This document shows, in pieces, positions 4,178 through 49,429 of a stretch of DNA of 49,714 bases. The notes below the pieces were generated by a model. The model had not been told where the DNA came from and did not search any database. It was given only the letters and a program-made list of their open reading frames with translations. Origin of the DNA: a virus (taxonomy: Duplodnaviria; Heunggongvirae; Uroviricota; Caudoviricetes); the IMG/VR virus record IMGVR_UViG_643348544_000005; one strand, written 5' to 3'. The position numbers and the translations under genes are program-made. How positions within the stretch are numbered: the stretch's first letter is position 1; every line of letters starts with the position of its first letter.

Positions 4178-4362
4178 TGCCAGCATCCTTTTTGTATCGG
4201 ACGTAAACGGGCCAGCATTGAAAGAATGCATATTTTATTTAATAGCTCCCGTTCGTGTTTTCTCTTGTTAATGGCATCTTCAGTAAATACAGGGTTACTG
4301 ATAGTGACACCAATTTCAAAACAACCTTCAGACGTATTAACGTTTGGTAATAACGTTTCCAT
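4174..4362 (-). CDS. dicB: Cell-division inhibitor DicB
   Basis: 62-aa frame METLLPNVNTSEGCFEIGVTISNPVFTEDAINKRK…KGCWQ from ATG at 4360-4362 within the 97-aa track ORF; near-identical to recollected E. coli DicB (62 aa). Confidence 0.9.
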   Translation of the reverse strand: METLLPNVNTSEGCFEIGVTISNPVFTEDAINKRKHERELLNKICILSMLARLRPIQKGCWQ

Positions 4363-4536
4363 TATCGCGTCCTCAACAATGAATTTTGTGATGCGGTGCC
4401 TGGTGCCTCCAGGTGACGTTAACCAGTTAACAATTAACGCCGGATACAGAGAATCCACCCATAACACTGTTTTTGGTTTTAACTGTTCCGCGTGCGCTCA
4501 GCCGCATTCACCACATCACAAAATTCACTTTAAAAA

Positions 4537-4589
4537 GGGCGGCAGAGCAGTCACGGAGTAAAACTGATACCGCCAAACGTCACCAGAAA
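4537..4589 (-). ncRNA. dicF: DicF small regulatory RNA
   Basis: Minus-strand sequence TTTCTGGTGACGTTTGGCGGTATCAGTTTTACTCCGTGACTGCTCTGCCGCCC followed by a T-tract matches the recollected 53-nt DicF RNA; lies upstream of dicB as in the Qin dicBF operon. Confidence 0.85.
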
Positions 4590-11261: not shown

Positions 11262-12003
11262 TTTACTCTCCAAACATTCAAAAAAAAGCTAATCTTCTAT
11301 AATAACGAAATTCAGCTGGCACAATTAAAGATTAATTGCCACCAATTTCTTGATTTTATAATTTTATCTAAATGTTTTTGATTAATCTAGTCCTAAAAGA
11401 AACCTACTGCATAAATATTTATGCTGATGACCCACTCCCTGTTCGTTAACACATAGCAACGTTAGTAATGCATCCTAAGTGATCAATATTTTTGCTAGCT
11501 TCATCTGCTCGCTCAAAGGGAACTATAATGTTGGCTTGCGTGTGACTTGGCATGTTTAAAGAAGTGCTGGTGGTGACTGGTTGCTGTTTTCCATTTCCAC
11601 AGAACAAAATCATAGAAACTATACCCAGTAGTTGTATTGAATCACTGACGAGACAGCCTCATATTTATCAGGACTGGTGTACGTCCAATACAGGAGGTTG
11701 TGGTGCTGGTTCTCAAATGTGCGCTGGCTATTGCTGCTGTAATGGCAATTTATTGTCTTGCTGTTGTTCTTATGGATCACCTTTCTGATTGATTTCATAT
11801 TGGCGAGGTAACGGTAGTTAAGTAGAATTGCTGCGGGTGCTTGAGGCTATCTGCCTCGGGCATCAACACCAAAGGCAGATAGAGAAAAGCCCCAGTTAAC
11901 ATTACGCGTCCGGCAAGACGCTTAACATTAATCTGAGGCCATATCTATGCTCTACACACGTAGGTTAGCCTCTTACGTGCCGAAAGGCAAGGAGAAGCAG
12001 GCT

Positions 12004-12159
12004 ATGAAGCAGCAAAAGGCGATGCTAATCGCCCTGATCGTCATCTGTTTAACCGTCATAGTGACGGCACTGGTAACGAGGAAAGACCTCTGCGAGGTAC
12101 GAATCCGAACCGGCCAGACGGAGGTCGCTGTCTTCACAGCTTACGAACCTGAGGAGTAA
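12004..12159 (+). CDS. hokD: Hok/Gef-family type I toxin (HokD/RelF-like)
   Basis: 51-aa frame MKQQKAMLIALIVICLTVIVTALVTRKDLCEVRIRTGQTEVAVFTAYEPEE matches recollected HokD; upstream leader has hok-mRNA-like inverted repeats; in-frame upstream extension (from 11947) is the mok-like leader, not a separate gene. Confidence 0.85.
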   Translation: MKQQKAMLIALIVICLTVIVTALVTRKDLCEVRIRTGQTEVAVFTAYEPEE

Positions 12160-14035: not shown

Positions 14036-14395
14036 ATGCTCATAGATTTGGTTTTACCTTACCCACCGACGGTGAACACTTACTGGCGACGCCGTGGCAG
14101 CACATATTTTATCTCGGAGGAGGGAAAGCGTTATCGCCGGACTGTGGCGCTTATTGTTCGCCAGCAGCGGCTGAAATTAAGCCTGTCCGGAAGGCTGGTA
14201 ATCAGGATTATTGCAGAGCCACCGGATAAGCGCCGTCGCGACCTGGACAATATCCTGAAAGCACCACTGGATGCGCTGACGCATGCAGGACTGTTAATGG
14301 ACGATGAGCAGTTTGATGAAATCAATATTGTACGTGGCCAGCCAGTATCAGGTGGACGGCTGGAGATAAAAATTACAGATGTGGGGTGTGCATGA
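14036..14395 (+). CDS. rusA: Holliday junction resolvase RusA
   Basis: 119-aa ORF MLIDLVLPYPPTVNTYW…RRDLDNILKAPLDAL… matches RusA family; AGAGG SD. Confidence 0.9.
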   Translation: MLIDLVLPYPPTVNTYWRRRGSTYFISEEGKRYRRTVALIVRQQRLKLSLSGRLVIRIIAEPPDKRRRDLDNILKAPLDALTHAGLLMDDEQFDEINIVRGQPVSGGRLEIKITDVGCA

Positions 14396-15081
14396 ATAAC
14401 CAGTATTTACAGTTTGTTCGTGAGCAACTCATGATTGCCACAGCGGATCTCAGTGGGTCGACAAAAGGCCAGCTGGAAGCCTGGCAGGAAAATGCCCTGT
14501 TCGATACGGGGCGTTACAGGCGTAAAAAAATCCGGTACCGCGATGAAGTGACCGGAAAAATGATCACGCGGGATAATCCACCAATCCCGGGAAAACAATC
14601 GCTGGCGAAGGGGACGTCAATTCCTCTGGTCAGTCAGGTTGCTTTTTCTACATCATCATGGCGGCGGGCTGTTTTGTCTCTTGAAGAACATCATAAAGCC
14701 TGGTTGTTGTGGTGTTACAGCGGAAATACTTGCTGGGAGTATCAGATCGCGATAACGCAGTGGGCATGGACAGAATTTAAGACTCACTCTGGTACCAGGA
14801 AAATTGCAGGGAAGACACAGGAACGCCTGAAAAAATTAATCTGGCTGGCTGCACAGGATGTCAGGAGATGGGTTATAGGACATGATATCTACCAGCAACA
14901 GGAGCTTGCCCGTCTGTGTGGGATTAAGCCTGACAACTGGAGCCACAATTATGTGAGCTACTGGCGTGAAATACTCGACATTTTTATGAACCTCGATACC
15001 GAATCTCTGATTTGCACTGTGAAAAGGAGAGCTCAACAAAAAGCGGCATTTTTGCAGCGAGATATTGCAAAAGTCAATTAG
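14392..15081 (+). CDS. Late-gene antiterminator Q-like protein
   Basis: 229-aa frame from ATG 14392 overlapping rusA stop; sits between rusA and a PR'/tR'-like promoter-terminator, the standard Q position; family assignment by position and size. Confidence 0.6.
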   Translation: MNNQYLQFVREQLMIATADLSGSTKGQLEAWQENALFDTGRYRRKKIRYRDEVTGKMITRDNPPIPGKQSLAKGTSIPLVSQVAFSTSSWRRAVLSLEEHHKAWLLWCYSGNTCWEYQIAITQWAWTEFKTHSGTRKIAGKTQERLKKLIWLAAQDVRRWVIGHDIYQQQELARLCGIKPDNWSHNYVSYWREILDIFMNLDTESLICTVKRRAQQKAAFLQRDIAKVN

Positions 15082-15130: not shown

Positions 15131-15154
15131 CCCGCTCAAATGTGCGGGTTTTTT
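15131..15154 (+). terminator. tR'-like intrinsic terminator downstream of Q
   Basis: CCCGC-TCAAATGT-GCGGG hairpin followed by TTTTTT; candidate -35/-10 (TTGCAA…TATATT) lies ~40-60 bp upstream, consistent with a late promoter and short leader. Confidence 0.5.
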
Positions 15155-15227
15155 GCTTAACTCTGTGGACCTTTTTATCTGTAGTTGTAATATATGGATA
15201 TTGTTACAATTTAGGTCGGTGAGCTTA

Positions 15228-15992
15228 ATGGAAGAACAGCACGGTAATTACTTTATAAAACGAATTCAGTTGATTGGAAGAGGGGCATTTGGCTTTGTTG
15301 AACACGTTAAGGTTTACAACCTCAATAAAGGTGAATGCGGGGATTATGCTAGAAAGGTCTTAGCACCCGAAAAACCAGAGCTTTTGGCGCAAATAGAGCA
15401 GTTTAGAAGGCGTTTTAAAAGGGAGGTTGTGTATCAATCACATTGCGTACATAGCAATATTGTTCCTATTTATTTGTGCGATTTGTTTGTTGAGAATCCA
15501 TGGTTCATTATGGATAAAGCAGAATGTGATCTTGAGCACGAAATAACGAACAACCTTCTTACAACAGATCAAAAAATTTCAATAGTGAAAATGGTATTAG
15601 ATGGTGTAGCTTACATCCATGCCAAAGGCTATTTACACAGAGATATAAAACCCTTTAATGTTTTGCGATTTAGCGACGGAACATACAAGGTGTCTGATTT
15701 TGGTCTGGTAAAAGATACGAATCCCGAAGGGGATACCACTAAATTGACCGAGATCGGTACCCGTATGGGAAGTACAAGATATATGGCTCCCGAGATTTTA
15801 TATAATGCAGAGTATTCAGTTAAGACTGATGTTTATGCTGTGGGACGGTTAATTGAAGACTTAAATTTAGATGATAAAAAAATAAAGCCTATCATAGCTA
15901 AGTGCACAAGGATGGATAAAGATGATAGATATCAGACAATAGATGATGTGGCGTTTGATTTTGCGCATTCTTTTTTAAGGAGTGAGTCATGA
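15228..15992 (+). CDS. Hanks-type (eukaryotic-like) Ser/Thr protein kinase
   Basis: 254-aa frame from ATG 15228; kinase subdomain motifs read directly: GRGAFGFV (Gly loop), YARKV (Lys), HRDIKPFNV (catalytic loop), DFG, APE; AT-rich. Confidence 0.85.
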   Translation: MEEQHGNYFIKRIQLIGRGAFGFVEHVKVYNLNKGECGDYARKVLAPEKPELLAQIEQFRRRFKREVVYQSHCVHSNIVPIYLCDLFVENPWFIMDKAECDLEHEITNNLLTTDQKISIVKMVLDGVAYIHAKGYLHRDIKPFNVLRFSDGTYKVSDFGLVKDTNPEGDTTKLTEIGTRMGSTRYMAPEILYNAEYSVKTDVYAVGRLIEDLNLDDKKIKPIIAKCTRMDKDDRYQTIDDVAFDFAHSFLRSES

Positions 15993-16732
15993 TTCAGCTG
16001 ATAGCAACTTCATCATTCTCGTATCCAAAAGAACCAGGTAGGGTCAACGAAGATTCATTGCTTCCTCCAAAAATTGTAGGAGACGGCATCTTATTTGCCG
16101 TAGCTGATGGTGTAGGTTCATACTCTGGTGCCAGTTATGCTTCATCCATGGCAATCGCTGAACTTTCAGCATTGACAAGTTTATCTTTTGATGCAGTTCC
16201 GAATGTATTTGCTGAAGTTAAGCGAAAAGTTATGTCGTTAGCTGAAGTTAATGATGAGTTCGATAAAGCTGCTACTACACTTACCTTTTGTTATGTTTGT
16301 GATAGCGGAATTATTATTGGTCATATTGGTGATTGTCGCTTGTATTGCATTGGAGAAAAGAAAGCATACCAATTGACGAAGGACGATACCAGACATCAGA
16401 TGTTAATTGATCAGAATATTTTTAAACCCAGAGATTTGAAGAATAAACCGGGAAAAAATATCTTAACGACTGCCATAGCCTCAAATGTTGATATGGAATA
16501 CGACTGTGATTTTATCCCGTGGAAAGATTTGCCTGGTATTAACGGGTTGTATCATCTGTGTATCATGTCTGATGGAGTTCATAACGTTTGGGAAAAACGC
16601 CCCAGATTTACATCAAATACTATGAGTAATAGTCAGAAGTTTTCTAATGGTATTTTGCGTCGTATAGAGAGAGCCGGACCTGATGATGACTTTTCTTTAG
16701 TAAGTATAATGGTGCGTGTGACGTCAGATTAG
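15989..16732 (+). CDS. PP2C-family Ser/Thr protein phosphatase
   Basis: 247-aa ORF, ATG 15989 overlapping kinase stop (ATGA) with AAGGAG SD; PP2C-like motifs …RVNEDS…, …FAVADGVGSYSG…, …MSDGV…. Confidence 0.85.
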   Translation: MIQLIATSSFSYPKEPGRVNEDSLLPPKIVGDGILFAVADGVGSYSGASYASSMAIAELSALTSLSFDAVPNVFAEVKRKVMSLAEVNDEFDKAATTLTFCYVCDSGIIIGHIGDCRLYCIGEKKAYQLTKDDTRHQMLIDQNIFKPRDLKNKPGKNILTTAIASNVDMEYDCDFIPWKDLPGINGLYHLCIMSDGVHNVWEKRPRFTSNTMSNSQKFSNGILRRIERAGPDDDFSLVSIMVRVTSD

Positions 16733-16842: not shown

Positions 16843-17169
16843 GTGCAGTACGTTAAACACGCTTGTGGTTGTGAATGCCGACTGCGGCGGTATTTTGGCG
16901 TGACAGCGCAGGTGCCGTATACCGATGTCTGGACGCATAAACCGGTGCAGTTCTATCCCGGGAAACATCCGTGCGAAAAACCGGCAGAAATGCTGCAGCA
17001 GATAATCAGCGCAAGCAGTCGTCCGGGAGACCTGGTTGCAGATTTTTTTATGGGCTCAGGTTCAACGGTAAAAGCGGCACTGGCGCTCGGGCGTCGTGCG
17101 ATTGGCGTTGAACTGGAGACCGGACGTTTTGAGCAGACAGTCAGGGAAGTTCAGGATTTAATCGTTTGA
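16843..17169 (+). pseudogene. 3' remnant of a DNA (N6-adenine/N4-cytosine) methyltransferase
   Basis: 108-aa frame ending …DLVADFFMGSGSTVKAALALGRRAIGVELE… (SAM-binding motif-I region as found near the C-terminus of some phage DNA methylases); no N-terminal catalytic region; begins immediately after the kinase/phosphatase terminator. Confidence 0.5.
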
Positions 17170-17218
17170 AACGGATGAGATTGCAGAATTAATTACGCAC
17201 CATTATTATTCTGCTCCC

Positions 17219-17294
17219 GGCCCTTTAGCTCAGTGGTGAGAGCGAGCGACTCATAATCGCCAGGTCGCTGGTTCAAATCCAGCAAGGGCCACCA
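17219..17294 (+). tRNA. tRNA with CAU anticodon (Ile2/ileZ-like or Met)
   Basis: Cloverleaf read directly: acceptor GGCCCTT/AAGGGCC (7 bp), D-arm GCTC…GAGC, anticodon loop CTCATAA, T-arm GCTGG-TTCAAAT-CCAGC, encoded CCA. Confidence 0.85.
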
Positions 17295-17301
17295 TCACAT
17301 A

Positions 17302-17378
17302 CCGCCATTAGCTCATCAGGAAAGAGCGCCAGCCTTCGAAGCTGGTTGCGCGGAGTTCGGGTCCCCGAAGGCGGTCCA
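17302..17378 (+). tRNA. tRNA-Arg-like (anticodon UCG), imperfect stems
   Basis: D-arm GCTC…GAGC and anticodon arm CCAGC-CTTCGAA-GCTGG are clean; acceptor (CCGCCAT/AAGGCGG) and T-stem (CGGAG/CCCCG) each carry one mismatch and T-loop is TTCGGGT; may be degenerate. Confidence 0.55.
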
Positions 17379-17391
17379 TTATCTGTATCCT

Positions 17392-17468
17392 GCGTTGTTA
17401 GCTCAGCCGGACAGAGCAATTGCCTTCTAAGCAATCGGTCACTGGTTCGAATCCAGTACAACGCGCCA
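17392..17468 (+). tRNA. tRNA-Arg (anticodon UCU)
   Basis: Acceptor GCGTTGT/ACAACGC perfect, D-arm GCTC-AGCCGGACA-GAGC, anticodon arm ATTGC-CTTCTAA-GCAAT, T-arm ACTGG-TTCGAAT-CCAGT, encoded CCA. Confidence 0.85.
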
Positions 17469-17481
17469 CACTTATTTTCCC

Positions 17482-17508
17482 TGGCTCGCTTTTGTGGGCC
17501 TTTTTTTT
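17482..17508 (+). terminator. Intrinsic terminator after tRNA cluster
   Basis: GGCTCG…TGGGCC hairpin followed by TTTTTTTT. Confidence 0.5.
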
Positions 17509-17514
17509 AAATGT

Positions 17515-17730
17515 CTCACAATTTAGGCGGTTGACTGTTGTCTGGTTTGCGGGGAGTTTGTTAAAAGAAACTGGCATGGTGAATCCCCCTGTGCGGAGGG
17601 GCAATCAGCGAGTAGGTATATGGGATAATCGCGGATTCAGGTGCTGGTACTGAATTCACCGGGAGGCACCCGGCACCATGCAATGGCACATAGCGCCACT
17701 CTCCAGCCCCTCTCCGGAGGGGCTTTTCTG
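17515..17730 (+). repeat. Copy 1 of a diverged ~215-bp non-coding module (promoter-like box, conserved hairpins, terminator)
   Basis: Shares with copy 2: CTCACAATT, TTGAC(T/A), GCATGGTGAATCCCCCTG(T/A)GCGGAGGGGC, CACCGGGAGGCACCCGGCACCATG, and CCCCTCTCCGGAGGGG + T-tract. Confidence 0.6.
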
Positions 17731-17982
17731 TGCCGGATACATCACAGTTTCTGGAACCTTAGGTACTACAGTATCAGTCAGGGTGCTATATTTTCAGATG
17801 TGATGAAAGCCTGTCAGCAGGCAGGGCGTATCGGAAATGACCCAGTAGAGAAAACGTTGACTCAGATACCGGTGCTGAGTTACCGGGAAACCGGCATCAC
17901 ATGACCGCTATCCTTCCAGGCCCATCCGCTCCGGTGGGCCTTTTTACTGCAGAAAACAGGTTCCCCGTTAAATGCTATGTTG

Positions 17983-18215
17983 CTCACAATTCAGTAAGTT
18001 GACAGTTGCCTGTCAGACTGGGCATTTGTTAAAAAAATTTCGCATGGTGAATCCCCCTGAGCGGAGGGGCGACTGGTGACGGTATAATCTCTGATTATCA
18101 AAACGAGAATGACGCGGGTTTAGTGGCACCGGGCTGAACTCACCGGGAGGCACCCGGCACCATGTGCATGATGATACAGATACGCGGCTTTAGCCCCTCT
18201 CCGGAGGGGTTTTCT
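17983..18215 (+). repeat. Copy 2 of the diverged non-coding module
   Basis: Same ordered blocks as copy 1, 468 bp downstream; contains an additional TATAAT-like element (GGTATAATC) and extra downstream hairpins (CCCGCG…CGCGGG). Confidence 0.6.
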
Positions 18216-18444
18216 TGTGGGCAAAAAAAGCCCGCGCTGGGAGACGCGGGCGGCAAGGAATAAACAATAAAACGTGAAGTAATATTTCAGCTGGCGAATA
18301 ATACCCCATAGTAATCACTCTGCGCAACTGCGCGGTCTTTTTCGAATTGCGGGCTGTCGTCTCTCTTCTGCCATTGTCCTGTAACTTCCGGACTTCAGCC
18401 CGCTCCTTATTTTACTCACAATATTATCCCGGCCGGGAGGATTC

Positions 18445-20301
18445 ATGGCATTTAAACACTATGACGTGGTCAGGGCGGTATCGCCGTCAGACCTTGCGAA
18501 ACGACTGACACAAAAACTGAAGGAGGGCTGGCAGCCGTTTGGTAGTCCGGTGGCCATAACCCCTTATACCCTGATGCAGGCGATTGCAGCAGAAGGTGAT
18601 GTGGTGGTCAGTGGTGCAACTGAGCCGGATTGGTACTACGTCATCGTACTGGCCGGGCAGTCCAATGCCATGGCTTACGGTGAAGGGCTTCCGCTTCCGG
18701 ATTCATACGATGCGCCCCATCCGCGCATTAAGCAACTGGCCCGTCGTAACACAGTGACTCCCGGTGGTGAAGTATGCGTATTTAACGACATCATTCCTGC
18801 TGACCATTGTCTGCATGATGTTCAGGATATGAGTACGATTAACCATCCCCGGGCTGACCTGAGCAAAGGGCAGTACGGCTGTGTCGGCCAGGGCTTACAT
18901 ATTGCCAAAAAACTGCTTCCGTATATCCCTAATAATGCGGGGATCCTGCTGGTACCATGCTGTCGTGGTGGTTCGGCATTCACCCAGGGCACGGAGGGGA
19001 CATTCAGCGAGTCCACGGGGGCCAGTCAGGATTCGGCTCGCTGGGGAGTGGGTAAGCCGTTATATCAGGATCTGCTTTTCCGCACGAAGGCAGCATTGCA
19101 GAAAAACCCGAAAAACGTTTTGCTGGCGATATGCTGGATGCAGGGGGAATTCGATATGACGAATGCCAGTTACGCCCAGCAGCCAGCAGCATTTCTTGCA
19201 ATGGTACAGCAGTTCCGTGCTGACCTTGCCGGGCTGGCGGCGCAGTGTCACGGTGGAAGTCCGGCATCAGTCCCCTGGATTTGTGGCGACACGACATACG
19301 CGTGGAAACAAGAACACGGTACGCAATATGAAGTGGTATATGGTGCATATAAAGGTAAAGAATCCCAGCAGATTTATTTTGTTCCCTTTATGACCGATGG
19401 TAGCGGAGTTAATACACCGACAAACAACCCGTCAGAAGATCCTGATATTGCCGGGTCTGGTTATTACGGTTCGGCATCCCGAACGAACAAAAACTGGGTA
19501 TCATCAAATCGCCCGACGCATTTCAGCTCATGGGCGCGTCGTGGCATTATTCCCGATCGTATGGCAACTGCTATTCTGAACGTAGCCGGTCGCACCTTAG
19601 CCTTCATTAGTGGTAAGGCACCGGAAATCAAACCCTCGCCCGGCGGCGACACGCCATCGGGGCCGTCTGATGGTGACACATCCGTTCGTACAGTCTCCCT
19701 GCTGCCGACAGCCGGAGAGGCTGCTGCGCAGGGCTGGACCATCACCGGCGGCAGTGTTGCGCTGGAAGATGGTGTGTTTAAGGTTACCAAGCAGAGCAAT
19801 AAAACTTGGTCCCTGATGCATCCGGTGGATGACGCAGTCTCCCTGCTGACACGGGGTGGCAGACTGAGCTGTAAGTTTCGACTGTCAGGCGCACTGACCA
19901 ACAATCAGTTCGGTCTGGGAATTTATCTGTATACCGATGTAGCGTTACCTGACGTCGTGGCGATGACCGGGACTGGTAACCCGTTCCTGATGTCGTTCTT
20001 CACCCAGACCACAGACGGCAAACTGAATCTGATGCATCACAGGAAAGCAGGAAACACAAAGTTGGGCGAGTTCGGGAATTACAGTAACGACTGGCAGACG
20101 CTGGAGCTGGTGTTCACCGCCGGCAGTGCCACGGTTACTCCGAAACTGAATGGAGTGGCTGGCCCGGCATTCCAGGTCATAAAAGACAGTCTGACACTGG
20201 GGCTGAATGCGCTGACGCTGACGGATATTACCAAAAATGCAGCGTATGGCGTTGAGATAGAAAGTCTGGTGCTGGAGATAAATGCACCAGCATCATCATA
20301 A
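18445..20301 (+). CDS. nanS: NanS-p/YjhS-like sialate O-acetylesterase (SGNH hydrolase)
   Basis: 618-aa ORF, ATG 18445 with GGGAGGA SD; N-terminal …VIVLAGQSNAMAYGEG… (GQSN motif); occupies the position downstream of the tRNAs where the esterase gene lies in Stx phages. Confidence 0.8.
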   Translation: MAFKHYDVVRAVSPSDLAKRLTQKLKEGWQPFGSPVAITPYTLMQAIAAEGDVVVSGATEPDWYYVIVLAGQSNAMAYGEGLPLPDSYDAPHPRIKQLARRNTVTPGGEVCVFNDIIPADHCLHDVQDMSTINHPRADLSKGQYGCVGQGLHIAKKLLPYIPNNAGILLVPCCRGGSAFTQGTEGTFSESTGASQDSARWGVGKPLYQDLLFRTKAALQKNPKNVLLAICWMQGEFDMTNASYAQQPAAFLAMVQQFRADLAGLAAQCHGGSPASVPWICGDTTYAWKQEHGTQYEVVYGAYKGKESQQIYFVPFMTDGSGVNTPTNNPSEDPDIAGSGYYGSASRTNKNWVSSNRPTHFSSWARRGIIPDRMATAILNVAGRTLAFISGKAPEIKPSPGGDTPSGPSDGDTSVRTVSLLPTAGEAAAQGWTITGGSVALEDGVFKVTKQSNKTWSLMHPVDDAVSLLTRGGRLSCKFRLSGALTNNQFGLGIYLYTDVALPDVVAMTGTGNPFLMSFFTQTTDGKLNLMHHRKAGNTKLGEFGNYSNDWQTLELVFTAGSATVTPKLNGVAGPAFQVIKDSLTLGLNALTLTDITKNAAYGVEIESLVLEINAPASS

Positions 20302-20451
20302 AAAGTGAGCCAGTCAAATGGAAGGTATCGTTAAACTCACCGGTAGTGTTAGTGGGTCGTCTGAGATGCCTGCATGAGTTATCAGAGCCATCAGTACTTA
20401 ACTGGTGGCTTTTTTTATTGTTGTCAGCTTCCGGATAACGGGAGACGGGGT

Positions 20452-20667
20452 ATGTACCAGATGGAAAAAATCACAACAGGTGTGTCATACACCACGTCAG
20501 CGGTGGGAACGGGCTACTGGTTCCTGCAGTTGCTGGACAGGGTTTCCCCGTCTCAGTGGGCGGCAATAGGCGTGCTGGGGAGTCTGCTGTTTGGGCTGCT
20601 GACATATCTGACTAACCTGTATTTCAAAATCAGAGAGGACCGTCGTAAGGCTGCACGGGGAGAGTAA
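20452..20667 (+). CDS. S: Phage-21-type pinholin (S21-like) with dual-start motif
   Basis: 71-aa frame [71 protein letters not shown] closely matches recollected S21; Met1/Met4 dual start. Confidence 0.85.
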
Positions 20668-20671
20668 TTCA

Positions 20672-20986
20672 ATGACTCAAAACTATGAACTGATTGTGAA
20701 AGGGATCCGCAATTTTGAGAATAAAGTTACGGTAACTTTAGCGTTACGGGACAAAAAACGCTTTGACGGTGAAATTTTTGACCTGGACATCTCGCTGGAC
20801 CGTGTTGAAGGTGCCGCGCTGGAGTTTTATGAGGCAGCAGCCAGAAGGAGCATCAGACAGGTCTTCCTGGATGTTGCTGCCGGGTTATGTGAAGGGGACG
20901 AGCTGTTGCCAGAAACGCGCCCCTGTTCAGAGGCGCGGTATACCATAAAAATTAACAGTTCTGATAACTCGATTACGGGTTGTTAG
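20672..20986 (+). CDS. YdfR-like (DUF1327-type) small protein between holin and endolysin
   Basis: 104-aa ORF with ATG 20672; position matches ydfR between essQ and rrrQ in Qin; family assignment from memory. Confidence 0.55.
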   Translation: MTQNYELIVKGIRNFENKVTVTLALRDKKRFDGEIFDLDISLDRVEGAALEFYEAAARRSIRQVFLDVAAGLCEGDELLPETRPCSEARYTIKINSSDNSITGC

Positions 20987-47796: not shown

Positions 47797-48380
47797 TGGC
47801 ATTCAGAATGAGTGAACAAGCACGGACCATAAAAATTTATAATCTGCTGGCCGGAACTAATGAATTTATTGGTGAAGGTGACGCATATATTCCGCCTCAT
47901 ACAGGTCTGCCAGCAAACAGTACCGATATTGCACCGCCAGATATTCCGGCTGGCTTTGTGGCTGTTTTCAACAGTGATGAGGCATCGTGGCATCTCGTTG
48001 AAGATCATCGGGGTAAAACGGTTTATGACGTAGCTTCCGGCGACGCGTTATTTATTTCTGAACTCGGCTTATTACCGGAAAATGTTACCTGGTTATCGCC
48101 AGAAGGGGAGTTTCAGAAGTGGAACGGCACAACCTGGGTGAAAGATGCAGAAGCAGAAAAACTGTTCCGGATCCGGGAGGCGGAAGAAACAAAAAACAAC
48201 CTGATGCAGGTAGCCAGTGAGCATATTGCGCCGCTTCAGGATGCTGCAGATCTGGAAATTGCAACGGAGGAAGAAACCTCATTGCTGGAAGCCTGGAAAA
48301 AGTATCGGGTGTTGCTGAACCGTGTTGATACATCAACTGCACCTGATATTGAGTGGCCTACGAACCCTGTCAGGGAGTAA
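47796..48380 (+). CDS. tfa: Tail fibre assembly protein Tfa
   Basis: 194 aa; [54 protein letters not shown]… matches lambda Tfa; start overlaps stf stop (TAATG). Confidence 0.85.
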
Positions 48381-49159: not shown

Positions 49160-49429
49160 ATGCTGCCGCAGCATAGCGATATTGAAATAGCCTGGTATGC
49201 TTCGATACAGCAGGAGCCGAATGGCTGGAAGACCGTCACCACACAGTTCTACATCCAGGAATTCAGTGAGTATATTGCGCCACTGCAGGATGCTGTAGAT
49301 CTGGAAATCGCAACGGAGGAAGAAAGATCGTTGCTGGAGGCATGGAATAAATATCGGGTATTGTTGAATCGTGTTGATACATCAACTGCACCTGATATTG
49401 AGTGGCCTGCAAATCCTGTCAGGGAGTAA
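49160..49429 (+). CDS. Tfa C-terminal-domain homologue (short second tail-fibre-assembly-like gene)
   Basis: 89 aa, ATG 49160 with AAGGGG SD; C-terminal 50 aa (…[51 protein letters not shown]) nearly identical to the Tfa C-terminus at 48222-48380. Confidence 0.55.

Follow-up and report, generated by a model that had tools for sequence, protein, structure and literature searches.

Organization of the intergenic region

In the window (the whole 49,714 nt stretch of phage DNA analysed), the intergenic stretch of ~1 kb at 17470–18440, between the phage tRNA genes and an esterase gene, is a cluster of four putative sRNA genes, of families known from Stx and related prophages (Table 1). The gene order is Q (14386–15081), a terminator, three tRNA genes, a NanS-p-type esterase gene, holin and lysozyme, which up to the esterase gene agrees with that given in a preliminary description of this DNA; Ser/Thr kinase and PP2C phosphatase genes and a methylase remnant all lie between Q and the tRNAs. 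The argO terminator forms the left edge of the locus, with the module of unit A directly after it, and the esterase gene forms the right edge. The setting is a late-region cargo ('moron') slot in a lambdoid prophage of extraintestinal-type (B2-type) E. coli; ATCC 11775, IHE3034 and NU14 are examples of strains with this prophage. The interval had been described as lacking a convincing ORF, and this holds: no ORF within 17470–18440 exceeds 87 aa, and a Pfam search with the three longest gave no match. Existing annotation of the region is blank or consists of a spurious minus-strand pseudo-CDS.

Table 1. Coordinates of genes and signals in and beside the sRNA cluster (positions in the window)
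Feature	Position	Strand	Basis
Intrinsic terminator after tRNA-Arg(UCU) (argO)	17483..17508	+	Terminator scan; comparison with L004 2519–2556
TCACAATT box of unit A, at −58..−51	17516..17523	+	39 distinct upstream regions
Inferred sigma-70 promoter of unit A: TTGTCT, 18 nt, TGtTAAAAG (extended −10), 6 nt to +1	17538..17567	+	
Unit A, STnc100-family sRNA gene	17574..17732	+	RF02076, 136.3 bits as 17545–17735
Inferred extended −10 of unit B: TGcTATATT	17784..17792	+	Read from sequence
Unit B, diverged STnc100/PasD-family sRNA gene	17798..17948	+	RF02076, 30.1 bits, full model length
TCACAATT box of unit C, at −58	17984..17991	+	Alignment with Sp5
Inferred promoter of unit C: TTGCCT, 18 nt, TGtTAAAAA, 6 nt to +1	18006..18035	+	
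Unit C, STnc100-family sRNA gene	18042..18219	+	RF02076, 161 bits as 18013–18222
Convergent minus-strand sRNA gene, dyad partner of unit C	18223..18404	−	EPEC orthologue; fold; terminator scan
Terminator-like hairpin CUGCGCAACUGCGCGG, then UCUUUUU	18320..18345	+	Terminator scan; kept in Sp5 and EPEC
NanS-p-type sialate O-acetylesterase gene (DUF1737 + SASA + DUF6645)	18445..20301	+	Pfam scan

Three tandem plus-strand units

Units A and C are the two copies of a module previously recognized as duplicated, and every block named for it is present where it had been placed. GCATGGTGAATCCCCCTGNGCGGAGGGGC occurs at 17574–17602 and 18042–18070, and CACCGGGAGGCACCCGGCACCATG at 17657–17680 and 18141–18164; for each there are two exact matches, against none in 100 shuffles. 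Identity between the copies is 78% over 17515–17602/17983–18070, 97% over 17650–17680/18134–18164 and 89% in the terminator hairpins (17705–17732/18192–18219). Both are full-length members of the curated family STnc100 (Rfam RF02076), covering model positions 1–206 with scores above the curated gathering score of 47 bits, which bears out the earlier reading of the module as an sRNA gene. The Rfam model starts 29 nt upstream of the +1 assigned here. Unit A comprises a 5' domain (17574–17681), a linker and putative seed, AAUGGCACAUAGCGCCACUCUCCA, and a terminator stem (17705–17724) followed by a U run; its predicted fold, a closing stem with hairpins, has an energy of −66.5 kcal/mol (z −2.1). 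Unit C comprises a 5' domain (18042–18165), the linker UGCAUGAUGAUACAGAUACGCGGCUUUA and a terminator stem (18192–18211), and is the positional equivalent of EcOnc27/STnc100 in Sp5, where the copy scores 207.7 bits.

The two copies are real, but the plus strand carries three tandem units, the third of which, unit B, is diverged. An extra hairpin noted at 17920–17947 is indeed present, with a T run, at 17918–17946; it does not stand alone but ends unit B. The RF02076 score of unit B is below the 47-bit threshold, with E 4e-5 in a local 255-nt scan and all helices aligned; by its sequence it is a diverged relative and, at the curated cut-off, not an STnc100 member. It has the closing stem AUGUGAUG/CAUCACAU, the linker GACCGCUAUCCUUCCA and a terminator stem at 17918–17941, and it folds at −53.2 kcal/mol (z −2.15). 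Among 5426 E. coli genomes, 672 carry unit B, in two alleles that are 91% identical, and it is unannotated in all records listed, save one partial match. The sRNA-17 of meningitis strain RS218, encoded within an intergenic region of more than 1 kb in an mEp460-like prophage and unmatched in Rfam, was considered as a candidate for unit B; its sequence, as given by primers, is absent from the window (PMC7719688).

One or more units, unit B especially, could be non-functional duplicates, decaying after unequal recombination between prophages with different alleles. This would fit the low score, the occurrence of just two alleles and the predominance of single-unit loci, of which phi296 and TL-2011a, matching the query over ~885 bp rather than ~1330 bp, may be examples. 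Yet every helix of unit B is kept, the closing stem and hairpin 1 by compensatory changes, its extended −10 and terminator are intact in both alleles despite a difference of ~9%, and it is carried by hundreds of genomes. Decay is therefore considered improbable.

RNA structure and covariation

Minimum free energy folds of units A, B and C and of PasD2 have one common architecture; in the three units, as in STnc100, a long-range closing stem surrounds hairpins and is followed by the terminator hairpin. Covariation, which had been proposed as a check, was supported by 33 distinct 5' domains: 95.8% of cells were paired, compared with 38–48% when partners were slid, and both-side changes were seen at nine pairs (36 cells). 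No shuffle in 500 matched the data on four of five measures, and 21 did so for further pair types. The covariation is located in the closing stem and helix 3, and RNAalifold independently recovered helix 3 and one covarying base of helix 2. For hairpins 1 and 4, the main alignment shows sequence conservation and little covariation, and support comes mainly from unit B and a copy in the dicB leader. RNAalifold run on a MAFFT alignment gave a partly different consensus, with alternative pairing between hairpins 1 and 4, in part owing to misalignment of PasD and L235x at their 3' ends; this alternative was rejected, as unit B and the dicB-leader copy keep the Rfam-like structure and have lost the alternative one. 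The folding z-scores are modest (−1.3 to −2.2).

The substitutions fit base pairing rather than codons, which argues against small proteins being encoded from the ATG within GCATGG. This ATG, at +3, is conserved, and some EDL933 copies of STnc100 have ribosome footprints, with ribosomal coverage values of up to 3.2 (PMC5331693). However, it lacks a Shine–Dalgarno sequence, lies inside the closing stem and has no equivalent in unit B, and the frame that it opens runs to 25 codons in unit A, 11 in unit C and in Sp5, and 8 in PasD2. The small-peptide reading was rejected for this lack of conservation in frame length, and coding from this position is judged extremely improbable.

Putative promoters and 5' ends

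The TCACAATT box of unit A is the conserved left end of the STnc100 module. All 39 distinct upstream regions carry its TCACA unchanged, in most of them at −58, exactly where a class I CRP site centred at −61.5 would have its right half. The left half, T(G/T)TTA, is a poor match that lacks the second G, so that a CRP site here is, from the sequence, only half supported. The CTCACAAT boxes were also considered as PasD target sites (CUCACA), and this was rejected: the conserved core is TCACAATT and the preceding base is variable.

The geometry TTGyCT-18-TGtTAAAAr-6-G, with the conserved core TTTGTTAAAA, is found in most of 42 distinct upstream regions, and that of unit C is identical in Sp5. PasD-type units have a TTGACT/TTGATT-18-TAAAAA promoter instead. 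Upstream of the −10 of unit B there is a TCACAGTT box (17742–17749), and the TGcTATATT element is also present in the 91%-identical allele. A TTGAC(T/A) box previously proposed as a promoter element is present, but is probably not the −35: its distance from the conserved −10 region is 25 nt, and the adjoining TTGyCT is better conserved.

The 5' end of unit A was placed by analogy at the GCATGG-type start; the 5' end of PasD2, mapped by RNA-seq and Northern blotting, is the G of GCAUGG (PMC8550237 Table S6). A strict consensus scan of the plus strand found no sigma-70 promoter, and the −10 hexamers of unit A (TAAAAG) and unit C (TAAAAA) lack the usual T at position 6. Since these elements are atypical and the consensus scan was negative, promoters and +1 positions are assigned here by analogy and conservation. 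An RpoD/RpoN ChIP-exo study of Salmonella LT2 gives STnc100 promoters as an example (PMC10794520).

The weak −10 of units A and C and the negative scan could also indicate that the RNAs are processed rather than primary, cut at the base of the closing stem from longer transcripts of the tRNA operon or of late PR' read-through, much as DicF is excised from the RNA of the dicBF operon. A related 5' domain is found within the dicF–dicB spacer without a promoter or terminator of its own. In addition, processing from a longer transcript has been reported for the neighbouring sRNA family PasA (bioRxiv 10.64898/2026.05.13.724894). Nevertheless, TTGyCT-18-TGtTAAAAr-6-+1 recurs across diverse STnc100-type units, unit B has a good TGcTATATT, the units are kept apart by the argO terminator and by the terminator of each unit, and uninduced cultures contain PasD and several STnc100 RNAs in abundance (PMC8550237; PMC5331693). 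An origin by processing is therefore judged unlikely.

The convergent minus-strand sRNA gene

The minus-strand gene has a ~70-nt 3' core (18292–18223) with the seed CCUUGCC and the terminator GCCCGCGUCUCCCAGCGCGGGC followed by U7. The fold has a z-score of −2.9, and the gene is present in 986 of the 5426 E. coli genomes. Its 5' end is uncertain, and may be at 18404, as estimated from EPEC, or at ~18292, if a candidate TTGCGC-18-TATTAT promoter is used. The plus-strand terminator-like hairpin at 18320–18345 overlaps this candidate promoter. The seed and terminator are nearly identical to those of EPEC E2348C_1409.E2348C_1408.IGR (NC_011601, 1444797–1444978, minus strand; EcOnc42/EcOnc21/EcOnc08 in EHEC), which likewise occupies the slot between an STnc100 unit and nanS-p and from which the window copy differs by a few substitutions. 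In EPEC, this RNA formed 767 RIL-seq chimeras with the cfa 5' UTR, and its reported targets are the cfa and dppA 5' UTRs, among others.

Unit C and the minus-strand gene converge, their ends (~18219 and 18223) being a few bases apart, with Q upstream and holin and lysozyme genes downstream, a layout as in Sp5. Together they are an 'sRNA dyad' of the kind already described in EHEC prophages (AsxR/EcOnc27 and AgvB/EcOnc06; Tree et al., 2014, per PMC7873438), where a convergent pair likewise lies between the late promoter and the lysis genes. In contrast to those dyads, the partner here is an EcOnc42/21/08-type allele, neither AsxR nor AgvB, and two more plus-strand units precede the dyad. AsxR (RF02703) and AgvB (RF02702) had no match in 17100–20800 at E up to 5; the AsxR copy of Sp5 scores 88 bits, and the minus-strand gene occupies the AsxR slot. 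The dyad after stx2B, EcOnc27 with AsxR, binds Hfq, and dyads of this kind are found in at least eight Sakai prophages (PMC7873438). Judging only from their orthologues (RIL-seq in EPEC and Hfq-CRAC in EHEC), both dyad RNAs of the window may bind Hfq.

Comparison with Stx phages

Alignment with Stx phage Sp5 identified the module as the sequence found downstream of stx2B. The order in Sp5 is argO, stx2A, stx2B, STnc100, AsxR (minus strand) and nanS; the stx2AB cassette begins immediately past the argO-equivalent terminator, and homology to the DNA downstream of stx2B begins at the unit C TCACAATT box (17984). A tblastn search of the whole window with Stx2A and Stx2B gave chance matches only (E ≥ 0.56). 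Since stx2AB of Sp5 lies past the argO terminator and ahead of the first sRNA module, the toxin slot in the window is, on this sequence comparison, simply empty, and the sRNA region is its normal neighbour, with two extra units here. The preliminary description had non-coding DNA occupying the Stx-locus position, which is not supported, as Sp5 too carries the sRNA, the convergent sRNA and then the nanS leader after stx2B. A scar of toxin-cassette exchange is likewise unsupported: stx2AB of Sp5 is placed ahead of the TCACAATT box with which the sRNA module begins.

Unit C aligns base for base with STnc100 of Sp5 (EcOnc27/sRNA103) from the promoter through the 5' domain. Both A and C share with it the promoter geometry, 5' domain, terminator type and a slot after the tRNAs or stx and before nanS-p. 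The window differs in its linkers, the presumed seeds, which are unlike that of EcOnc27 (the Sp5 terminator is also different), in lacking stx upstream and in having three tandem units where Sp5 has one. The same order, with or without stx, was found in 123 loci, most commonly with a single unit.

Related sRNAs

Several relatives are known as transcripts. EcOnc27/sRNA103, directly downstream of stx2B, is positive by Northern blotting and Hfq-CRAC (reviewed in PMC7873438); STnc100 copies are transcribed in EDL933, one of them (STnc100_4) being Northern-positive (PMC5331693); and PasD1 and PasD2 were detected by Northern blotting and RIL-seq (PMC8550237). The function of the STnc100 family is listed as unknown (PMC9029176), and no target of a linker has been described.

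PasD1 and PasD2 (EPEC E2348/69; EcOnc13 in EHEC) share with the window units the 5' end (GCAUGGUGAAUCC...), closing stem and hairpin 1, the scaffold–linker/seed–terminator layout and a position directly upstream of a sialate esterase gene or holin; PasD2 scores 41 bits on RF02076. They differ in lacking hairpin 4 and in their TTGACT-18-TAAAAA promoter. The PasD seed/probe region CCUUGUGAGUUCUGGCUGCGCAUG (seed UGUGAG) had no match in the window with up to three mismatches allowed; what PasD and the window units have in common is the 5' scaffold only. Common ancestry of PasD and STnc100 has already been proposed in a 2026 preprint. PasA and PasC, which in EPEC lie between the esterase and holin genes, are absent from the window.

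Among 124 units, scaffolds and linkers are variously combined: scaffold S0 is found with at least six linker classes, and linker K0 with three scaffolds. The taxonomic range given here rests on phage, IMG/VR and E. coli collections; matches of the 16-mer GCATGGTGAATCCYCC in genome contigs were chance matches only, in unrelated phyla. Tandem sibling sRNAs are also known from core genomes, as in OmrA/OmrB and PrrF1/PrrF2, neighbouring paralogous genes in which one part is conserved and the rest differs. The conserved part of OmrA/B is the seed end, whereas in the window the structured scaffold is conserved and the presumed seed variable, and the genes are phage cargo rather than core genes.

Proposed mode of action

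We consider it likely that 17470–18440 is an sRNA gene cluster, with units A, B and C as tandem STnc100/PasD-family genes on the plus strand and a convergent sRNA gene on the minus strand, whose RNAs would act in trans. Homology and structure indicate that each plus-strand unit would specify an RNA of ~150–180 nt, the first ~105–125 nt of which would form a closed multi-helix domain with its closing stem starting at the inferred +1; a single-stranded linker of 16–28 nt, different in each unit, would follow, and the predicted 3' end is a GC-rich hairpin with a U tail. By analogy with PasD1/D2, EcOnc27/sRNA103 and EcOnc42, the RNAs would be made in the lysogen from their own sigma-70 promoters, Hfq would be bound via the terminator and U tail, and the linker, as seed, would pair in trans with host or prophage mRNAs or sRNAs. 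If the linkers, which differ in each unit, are pairing seeds, the array therefore presents three seeds on one scaffold. From anatomy only, the 5' domain, a 5'-terminal paired structure, may be mainly a stabilizing or portable scaffold, and the stacked terminators may hold constitutive transcription off nanS-p and the lysis genes until Q-modified polymerase passes. The stx cassette of Stx phages would insert upstream of the cluster, at a position that is empty here.

It is less likely that the units act mainly in cis, as a stack of terminators and structures that insulates nanS-p and the lysis cassette and is passed by Q-modified polymerase alone, the short RNAs being by-products. The stretch of 1.35 kb contains 10 terminator-like sites, compared with 1.5 ± 1.5 in shuffles, and five separate plus-strand terminators lie between argO and nanS-p, of which the hairpin at 18320–18345 would be the last barrier ahead of the nanS-p leader. 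The cluster is downstream of Q and a tR'-like terminator, and the arrangement is kept before nanS-p or a holin gene in the 123 loci. However, a plain terminator needs neither a covarying domain of ~105 nt nor its own conserved promoter-like element, and the RNAs of homologues are discrete, depend on Hfq for their accumulation and have specific RIL-seq partners (PMC8550237). Cis and trans roles are compatible, and the terminators may act as insulators in addition. Nothing was found in support of earlier suggestions that the modules are antitermination or processing sites.

Returning to trans-acting sRNAs, the ~105-nt 5' domain could be a portable RNA chassis of lambdoid phages, which would diversify their regulatory cargo by swapping seeds on a common stabilizing (or protein-binding) scaffold; this is put forward tentatively. 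The suggestion draws on the exact start of the domain at the 5' end, on covariation across scaffold types and on recombination with many unrelated seed-plus-terminator cassettes, and also on the occurrence of the domain as dicB leader just after DicF, with neither promoter nor terminator. If it is correct, the A–B–C array would be a three-seed battery in the slot where stx was later inserted in other phages.

The locus is of an already known kind and mostly ordinary; the three-unit array, unit B and the related domain in the dicF–dicB spacer are modest new details. STnc100 is among the most often annotated bacterial sRNA families, without an established function. When O157:H7 was studied by machine learning in 2025, haemolytic uraemic syndrome was predicted most strongly by variants in the copy that follows stx2 (PMC12711010); under the +1 assigned here, the variants at +90 and +103 after stx2B would be expected to change promoter activity of the Sp5 copy. 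Here the same cargo is found in a toxin-free prophage, with three presumed seeds on one scaffold and an sRNA of the cfa/dppA type, which makes the window a clean natural system for the role of the scaffold and the targets of each seed. It also indicates that the sRNA locus was there before stx, which lies upstream of it and has not replaced it.

Tandem small RNA genes between the tRNAs and the esterase

The preliminary description reported a duplicated promoter/hairpin/terminator module in non-coding DNA upstream of the NanS-p-type esterase gene, and proposed that it was a small RNA gene. A search of the entire window with the Rfam models, using their curated thresholds, supports this reading, as both copies, units A and C, are above-threshold matches to RF02076 (STnc100; threshold 47 bits) over model positions 1–206. 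A permissive local scan identified a third, sub-threshold but full-length match, unit B (E 4e-5). The further terminator described previously is a real hairpin, but represents the 3' hairpin of unit B.

Every other listed element was also present in the sequence. The order Q, hairpin with T run, three tRNAs and NanS-p-type esterase was confirmed by gene, tRNA and Pfam evidence; the longest ORF in the interval is at most 87 aa, and the top three lack a Pfam match. For each of the two long conserved blocks, the 49.7-kb window has two exact occurrences, compared with none in 100 shuffles. A repeat finder detected two pairs of direct repeats and the paired terminator hairpins (89% identity), the two halves having a mean column identity of 74% when aligned pairwise. 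The 1.35-kb stretch contains 10 terminator-like sites, against 1.5 expected.

Features of the small RNA locus and other elements of the window
Feature	Coordinates	Strand	Remarks
RF02076 match	4330–4539	minus	38.7 bits, below threshold
DicF	4537–4588		Rfam
sok antitoxin RNA	11835–12009		Rfam
Q gene	14386–15081
Hairpin AAACCCGCTCAAATGTGCGGGTTTTTT + T run	15131–15155	plus	about 50 nt past Q stop codon
Eukaryote-type Ser/Thr kinase	15153–15992		between Q and tRNAs
PP2C phosphatase	15989–16732		between Q and tRNAs
N6/N4 DNA methylase remnant	16843–17169		C-terminal 108 aa
tRNA genes CAU, UCG, UCU	17219–17468
TCACA(A/G)TT boxes	17516–17523, 17742–17749, 17984–17991		about 56–58 nt upstream of each inferred start
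Direct repeat	17515–17602/17983–18070		78% identity
Direct repeat	17650–17680/18134–18164		97% identity
Unit A, RF02076 match	17545–17735	plus	136.3 bits
Unit B, RF02076 match	17774–17947	plus	30.1 bits
Unit C, RF02076 match	18013–18222	plus	161 bits
Convergent sRNA gene	18223–18404	minus	between unit C and esterase
Hairpin CTGCGCAACTGCGCGG then TCTTTTT	18320–18345	plus	about 100 nt before esterase start codon
Esterase ORF	18445–20301		DUF1737, SASA esterase, DUF6645, as in NanS-p (Pfam)
Hairpin GCCATCAGTACTTAACTGGTGGC then T7	20385–20416	plus	between esterase stop codon and holin coding start
IS009	48139–48337		225.7 bits
IS009	49183–49386		112.5 bits, just below 117-bit threshold

The hairpin downstream of Q sits at the expected position of tR', from which StxS originates in Stx phages. 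The methylase remnant adjoins the kinase/phosphatase pair; strain AR_0017 shares the sRNA locus but has a frameshifted full-length methylase at this position, and the pair therefore looks like inserted cargo. P21-type holin and lysozyme genes lie downstream of the esterase. PasA, which occupies the esterase–holin gap in EPEC, is absent from the window; an element similar to the hairpin in this gap is present in EPEC PP2.

Structure of the units

When folded from their inferred 5' ends, units A, B and C and EPEC PasD2 share one architecture: a closing stem starting at the first nucleotide, three to four enclosed hairpins, a single-stranded linker, and a GC hairpin with a U tail. In unit B, the closing stem AUGUGAUG/CAUCACAU replaces GCAUGGUG/CACCAUGC, and hairpin 1 has GCCUG/CAGGC in place of CCCCC/GGGGG.

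Covariation was assessed in 124 units (44 distinct 5' domains) extracted from 120 IMG/VR contigs, which were found by a pattern spanning the closing-stem 5' strand and hairpin 1, so that variation in these two elements is under-sampled. In an alignment of 33 representatives, including both unit B alleles and PasD, 26 pairs in four helices were standard in 95.8% of cells, compared with 38–48% when the 3' partners were slid by 1–3 columns. Both sides had changed in nine pairs (36 cells). The observed values were reached by none of 500 shuffles on four of five measures, and by 21 of 500 for further pair types. This supports the helix pairing, most strongly for helix 3 and the closing stem; one pair of helix 3 is GC in 16 representatives and AU in 12, and another is AU in 22, UA in six and GC in three. 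The sequences of hairpins 1 and 4 hardly vary. From the same alignment, RNAalifold independently recovered helix 3 and, within the variable helix 2, one covarying base; it also proposes an alternative pairing of hairpin 1 with hairpin 4; hairpins 1 and 4 are kept, and this alternative is not, in both unit B and a further copy in the dicF–dicB spacer.

Relation to the stx locus

The non-coding DNA had been described as occupying the stx position, possibly as the scar of toxin-cassette exchange. Alignment with Sp5, the Stx2 prophage of O157:H7 Sakai (comparison sequence L004), shows that the module does correspond to DNA flanking stx2B there, on its downstream side. The order in Sp5 is argO, stx2A, stx2B, STnc100 (L004 3923–4128, 207.7 bits), AsxR (L004 4130–4182, minus strand, 88 bits) and the nanS-p homologue ECs_1207. 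Homology with the window extends through the argO terminator and is lost at the start of the stx2 promoter region. It restarts about 45 nt past stx2B, at the TCACAATT box, and covers unit C's promoter and 5' domain, then 18318 to the esterase start codon. No Stx homologue was found by tblastn anywhere in the window, and the toxin slot is therefore empty here. Neither occupation of the stx position nor a scar is supported, as the sRNA region lies downstream of stx2AB in Sp5 and follows stx2B there too. The non-coding region is what normally lies downstream of the toxin slot; it measures about 480 bp in Sp5, and units A and B make it longer in the window.

In a survey of 123 loci, the recurring order was argO, one unit, AsxR or the other minus-strand sRNA where present, and nanS. 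In seven loci the unit is preceded by stx sequence: six have argO, stxA and stxB, and the seventh has stxA alone. Ten loci, including the window, have the order unit, unit B, unit.

The 1351 bp from 17150 to 18500 have 100% identity to the chromosomes of a number of E. coli strains, among them AR_0017 and O18:H1 CFSAN067215, and 99.8% identity in ATCC 11775, NU14 and PMV-1; at least 80% of this region is found in one place in 319 of 5426 genomes. Unit B is present in 672 of the 5426 E. coli genomes as two alleles (100% and 90.8% identity), and is annotated in none of the records listed, save for one partial hit. No record in the phage collection has 85% identity across the whole array; PhiR5_2 covers 17504–18494 in one piece at 78%. 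At an identical locus (L001), the RefSeq annotation has no RNA gene anywhere in the interval. A partial pseudo 'hypothetical protein' is annotated there over unit A (L001 6415–6540, equivalent to 17564–17689, minus strand).

A convergent minus-strand sRNA gene

The minus-strand gene ends in a terminator, GCCCGCGUCUCCCAGCGCGGGC then U7, with UUAUUGUUUAUUCCUUGCCG upstream of it, and the region folds with a z of -2.9. Its 5' end is uncertain: analogy puts it near 18404, and a TTGCGC-18-TATTAT promoter would put it near 18292. It is the orthologue of, and near-identical to, the EPEC RIL-seq sRNA E2348C_1409.E2348C_1408.IGR (NC_011601 1444797–1444978, minus strand), which likewise lies between an STnc100 unit and nanS-p. 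The authors of that study equated this sRNA with EcOnc08/21/42 of EHEC, and its listed partners include the cfa 5' UTR (767 chimeras) and dppA. The sequence occurs in 986 of 5426 complete E. coli genomes. In Sp5 the same slot is held by AsxR, whereas the minus-strand sRNA matched neither the AsxR nor the AgvB model in the Rfam scan.

According to a review of EHEC sRNAs (PMC7873438), convergent Hfq-binding dyads lie between the late promoter and lysis genes in at least eight Sakai prophages, and the stx genes have StxS on one side and the AsxR/EcOnc27 dyad on the other. Unit C and the minus-strand gene have exactly this dyad layout. The plus-strand hairpin at 18320–18345, conserved in Sp5 and EPEC, may act as a final barrier ahead of nanS-p or belong to the minus-strand sRNA promoter region.

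Inferred promoters and 5' ends

The 5' end of PasD2, the G of GCAUGG, was placed by RNA-seq coverage and Northern size (PMC8550237 Table S6). Among 42 distinct upstream regions, STnc100-type units have TTGyCT, 18 nt, TGtTAAAAr, 6 nt and then the equivalent G; PasD-type units instead have TTGACT/TTGATT-18-TAAAAA, and in unit B, TGcTATATT lies equally far from the closing stem. The TTGAC(T/A) box reported previously is present, but is 25 nt from the -10 region and more variable. A strict consensus scan found no plus-strand promoter, and the Rfam model starts 29 nt upstream of the inferred +1; the +1 positions of units A, B and C (17574, 17798 and 18042) are therefore assignments by analogy. TCACA is invariant across 39 different upstream regions, in most of them at -58. 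Its position would suit the right half-site of a class I CRP site with its centre at -61.5, but the left half is weak.

Variants downstream of stx2, at +90 and +103 after stx2B, predicted HUS (PMC12711010). These map to L004 ~3938 and 3951, in the TGtTAAAAA -10 region and the 6-nt stretch before the inferred +1 (G3952) of Sp5 STnc100, and may therefore be promoter variants rather than changes in the RNA body.

The STnc100 family and exchange of its parts

The locus is of a known kind, combining the STnc100 family with an sRNA dyad. EDL933 has 11 annotated STnc100 copies, which are transcribed, one being Northern-confirmed (PMC5331693). One copy, lying 75 nt past stx2, has been found in outer-membrane vesicles (PMC12370729); the primers used match the unit A scaffold exactly (93 bp, 17575–17667). 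A 2026 preprint proposed the link between PasD and STnc100 by structure, and places PasD directly upstream of the esterase gene. The function of the family is listed as unknown (PMC9029176). The preliminary description therefore correctly rediscovered a family already known, in the place where it is known to occur. The modest additions are the three-unit array, the sub-threshold unit B, the mixing of scaffolds and linkers, and the copy in the dicB leader, descriptions of which were not found in searchable papers.

The variable interior of the 5' domain (scaffold) was classified into 11 types, and the first 24 nt past the closing stem (linker) into 14. Scaffold S0, of unit A type, is paired with at least six linker classes; linker K0, also of unit A type, occurs on three scaffolds, and K6, of EcOnc27 type, on four. 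Scaffold and linker part at the closing stem's 3' strand. Unit A is of the combination S0/K0 and unit C of S2/K2; they are therefore different alleles, and each also occurs in other surveyed loci. The array is more likely to have arisen by recombination between prophages than by local duplication and drift.

The further RF02076 match, from a permissive whole-window scan, lies directly after DicF and before the dicB start codon. A stretch of 132 nt within it (4388–4519) folds like the 5' domain of the units, into a closed multi-helix structure (-49.8 kcal/mol, z -3.4), a stability matched by none of 200 shuffles. Hairpin 4 is CCUGG-AGGCA-CCAGG here and CCGGG-AGGCA-CCCGG in units A and C, a compensatory change. 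Of 5426 E. coli genomes, 3977 carry the dicF–dicB spacer. It is well established that a base-paired domain at the 5' terminus can protect E. coli RNAs from 5'-end-dependent decay. The dicF–dicB copy lacks its own promoter and terminator, and the dicB ribosome-binding site comes next; this suggests that the STnc100 scaffold is a portable structural module.
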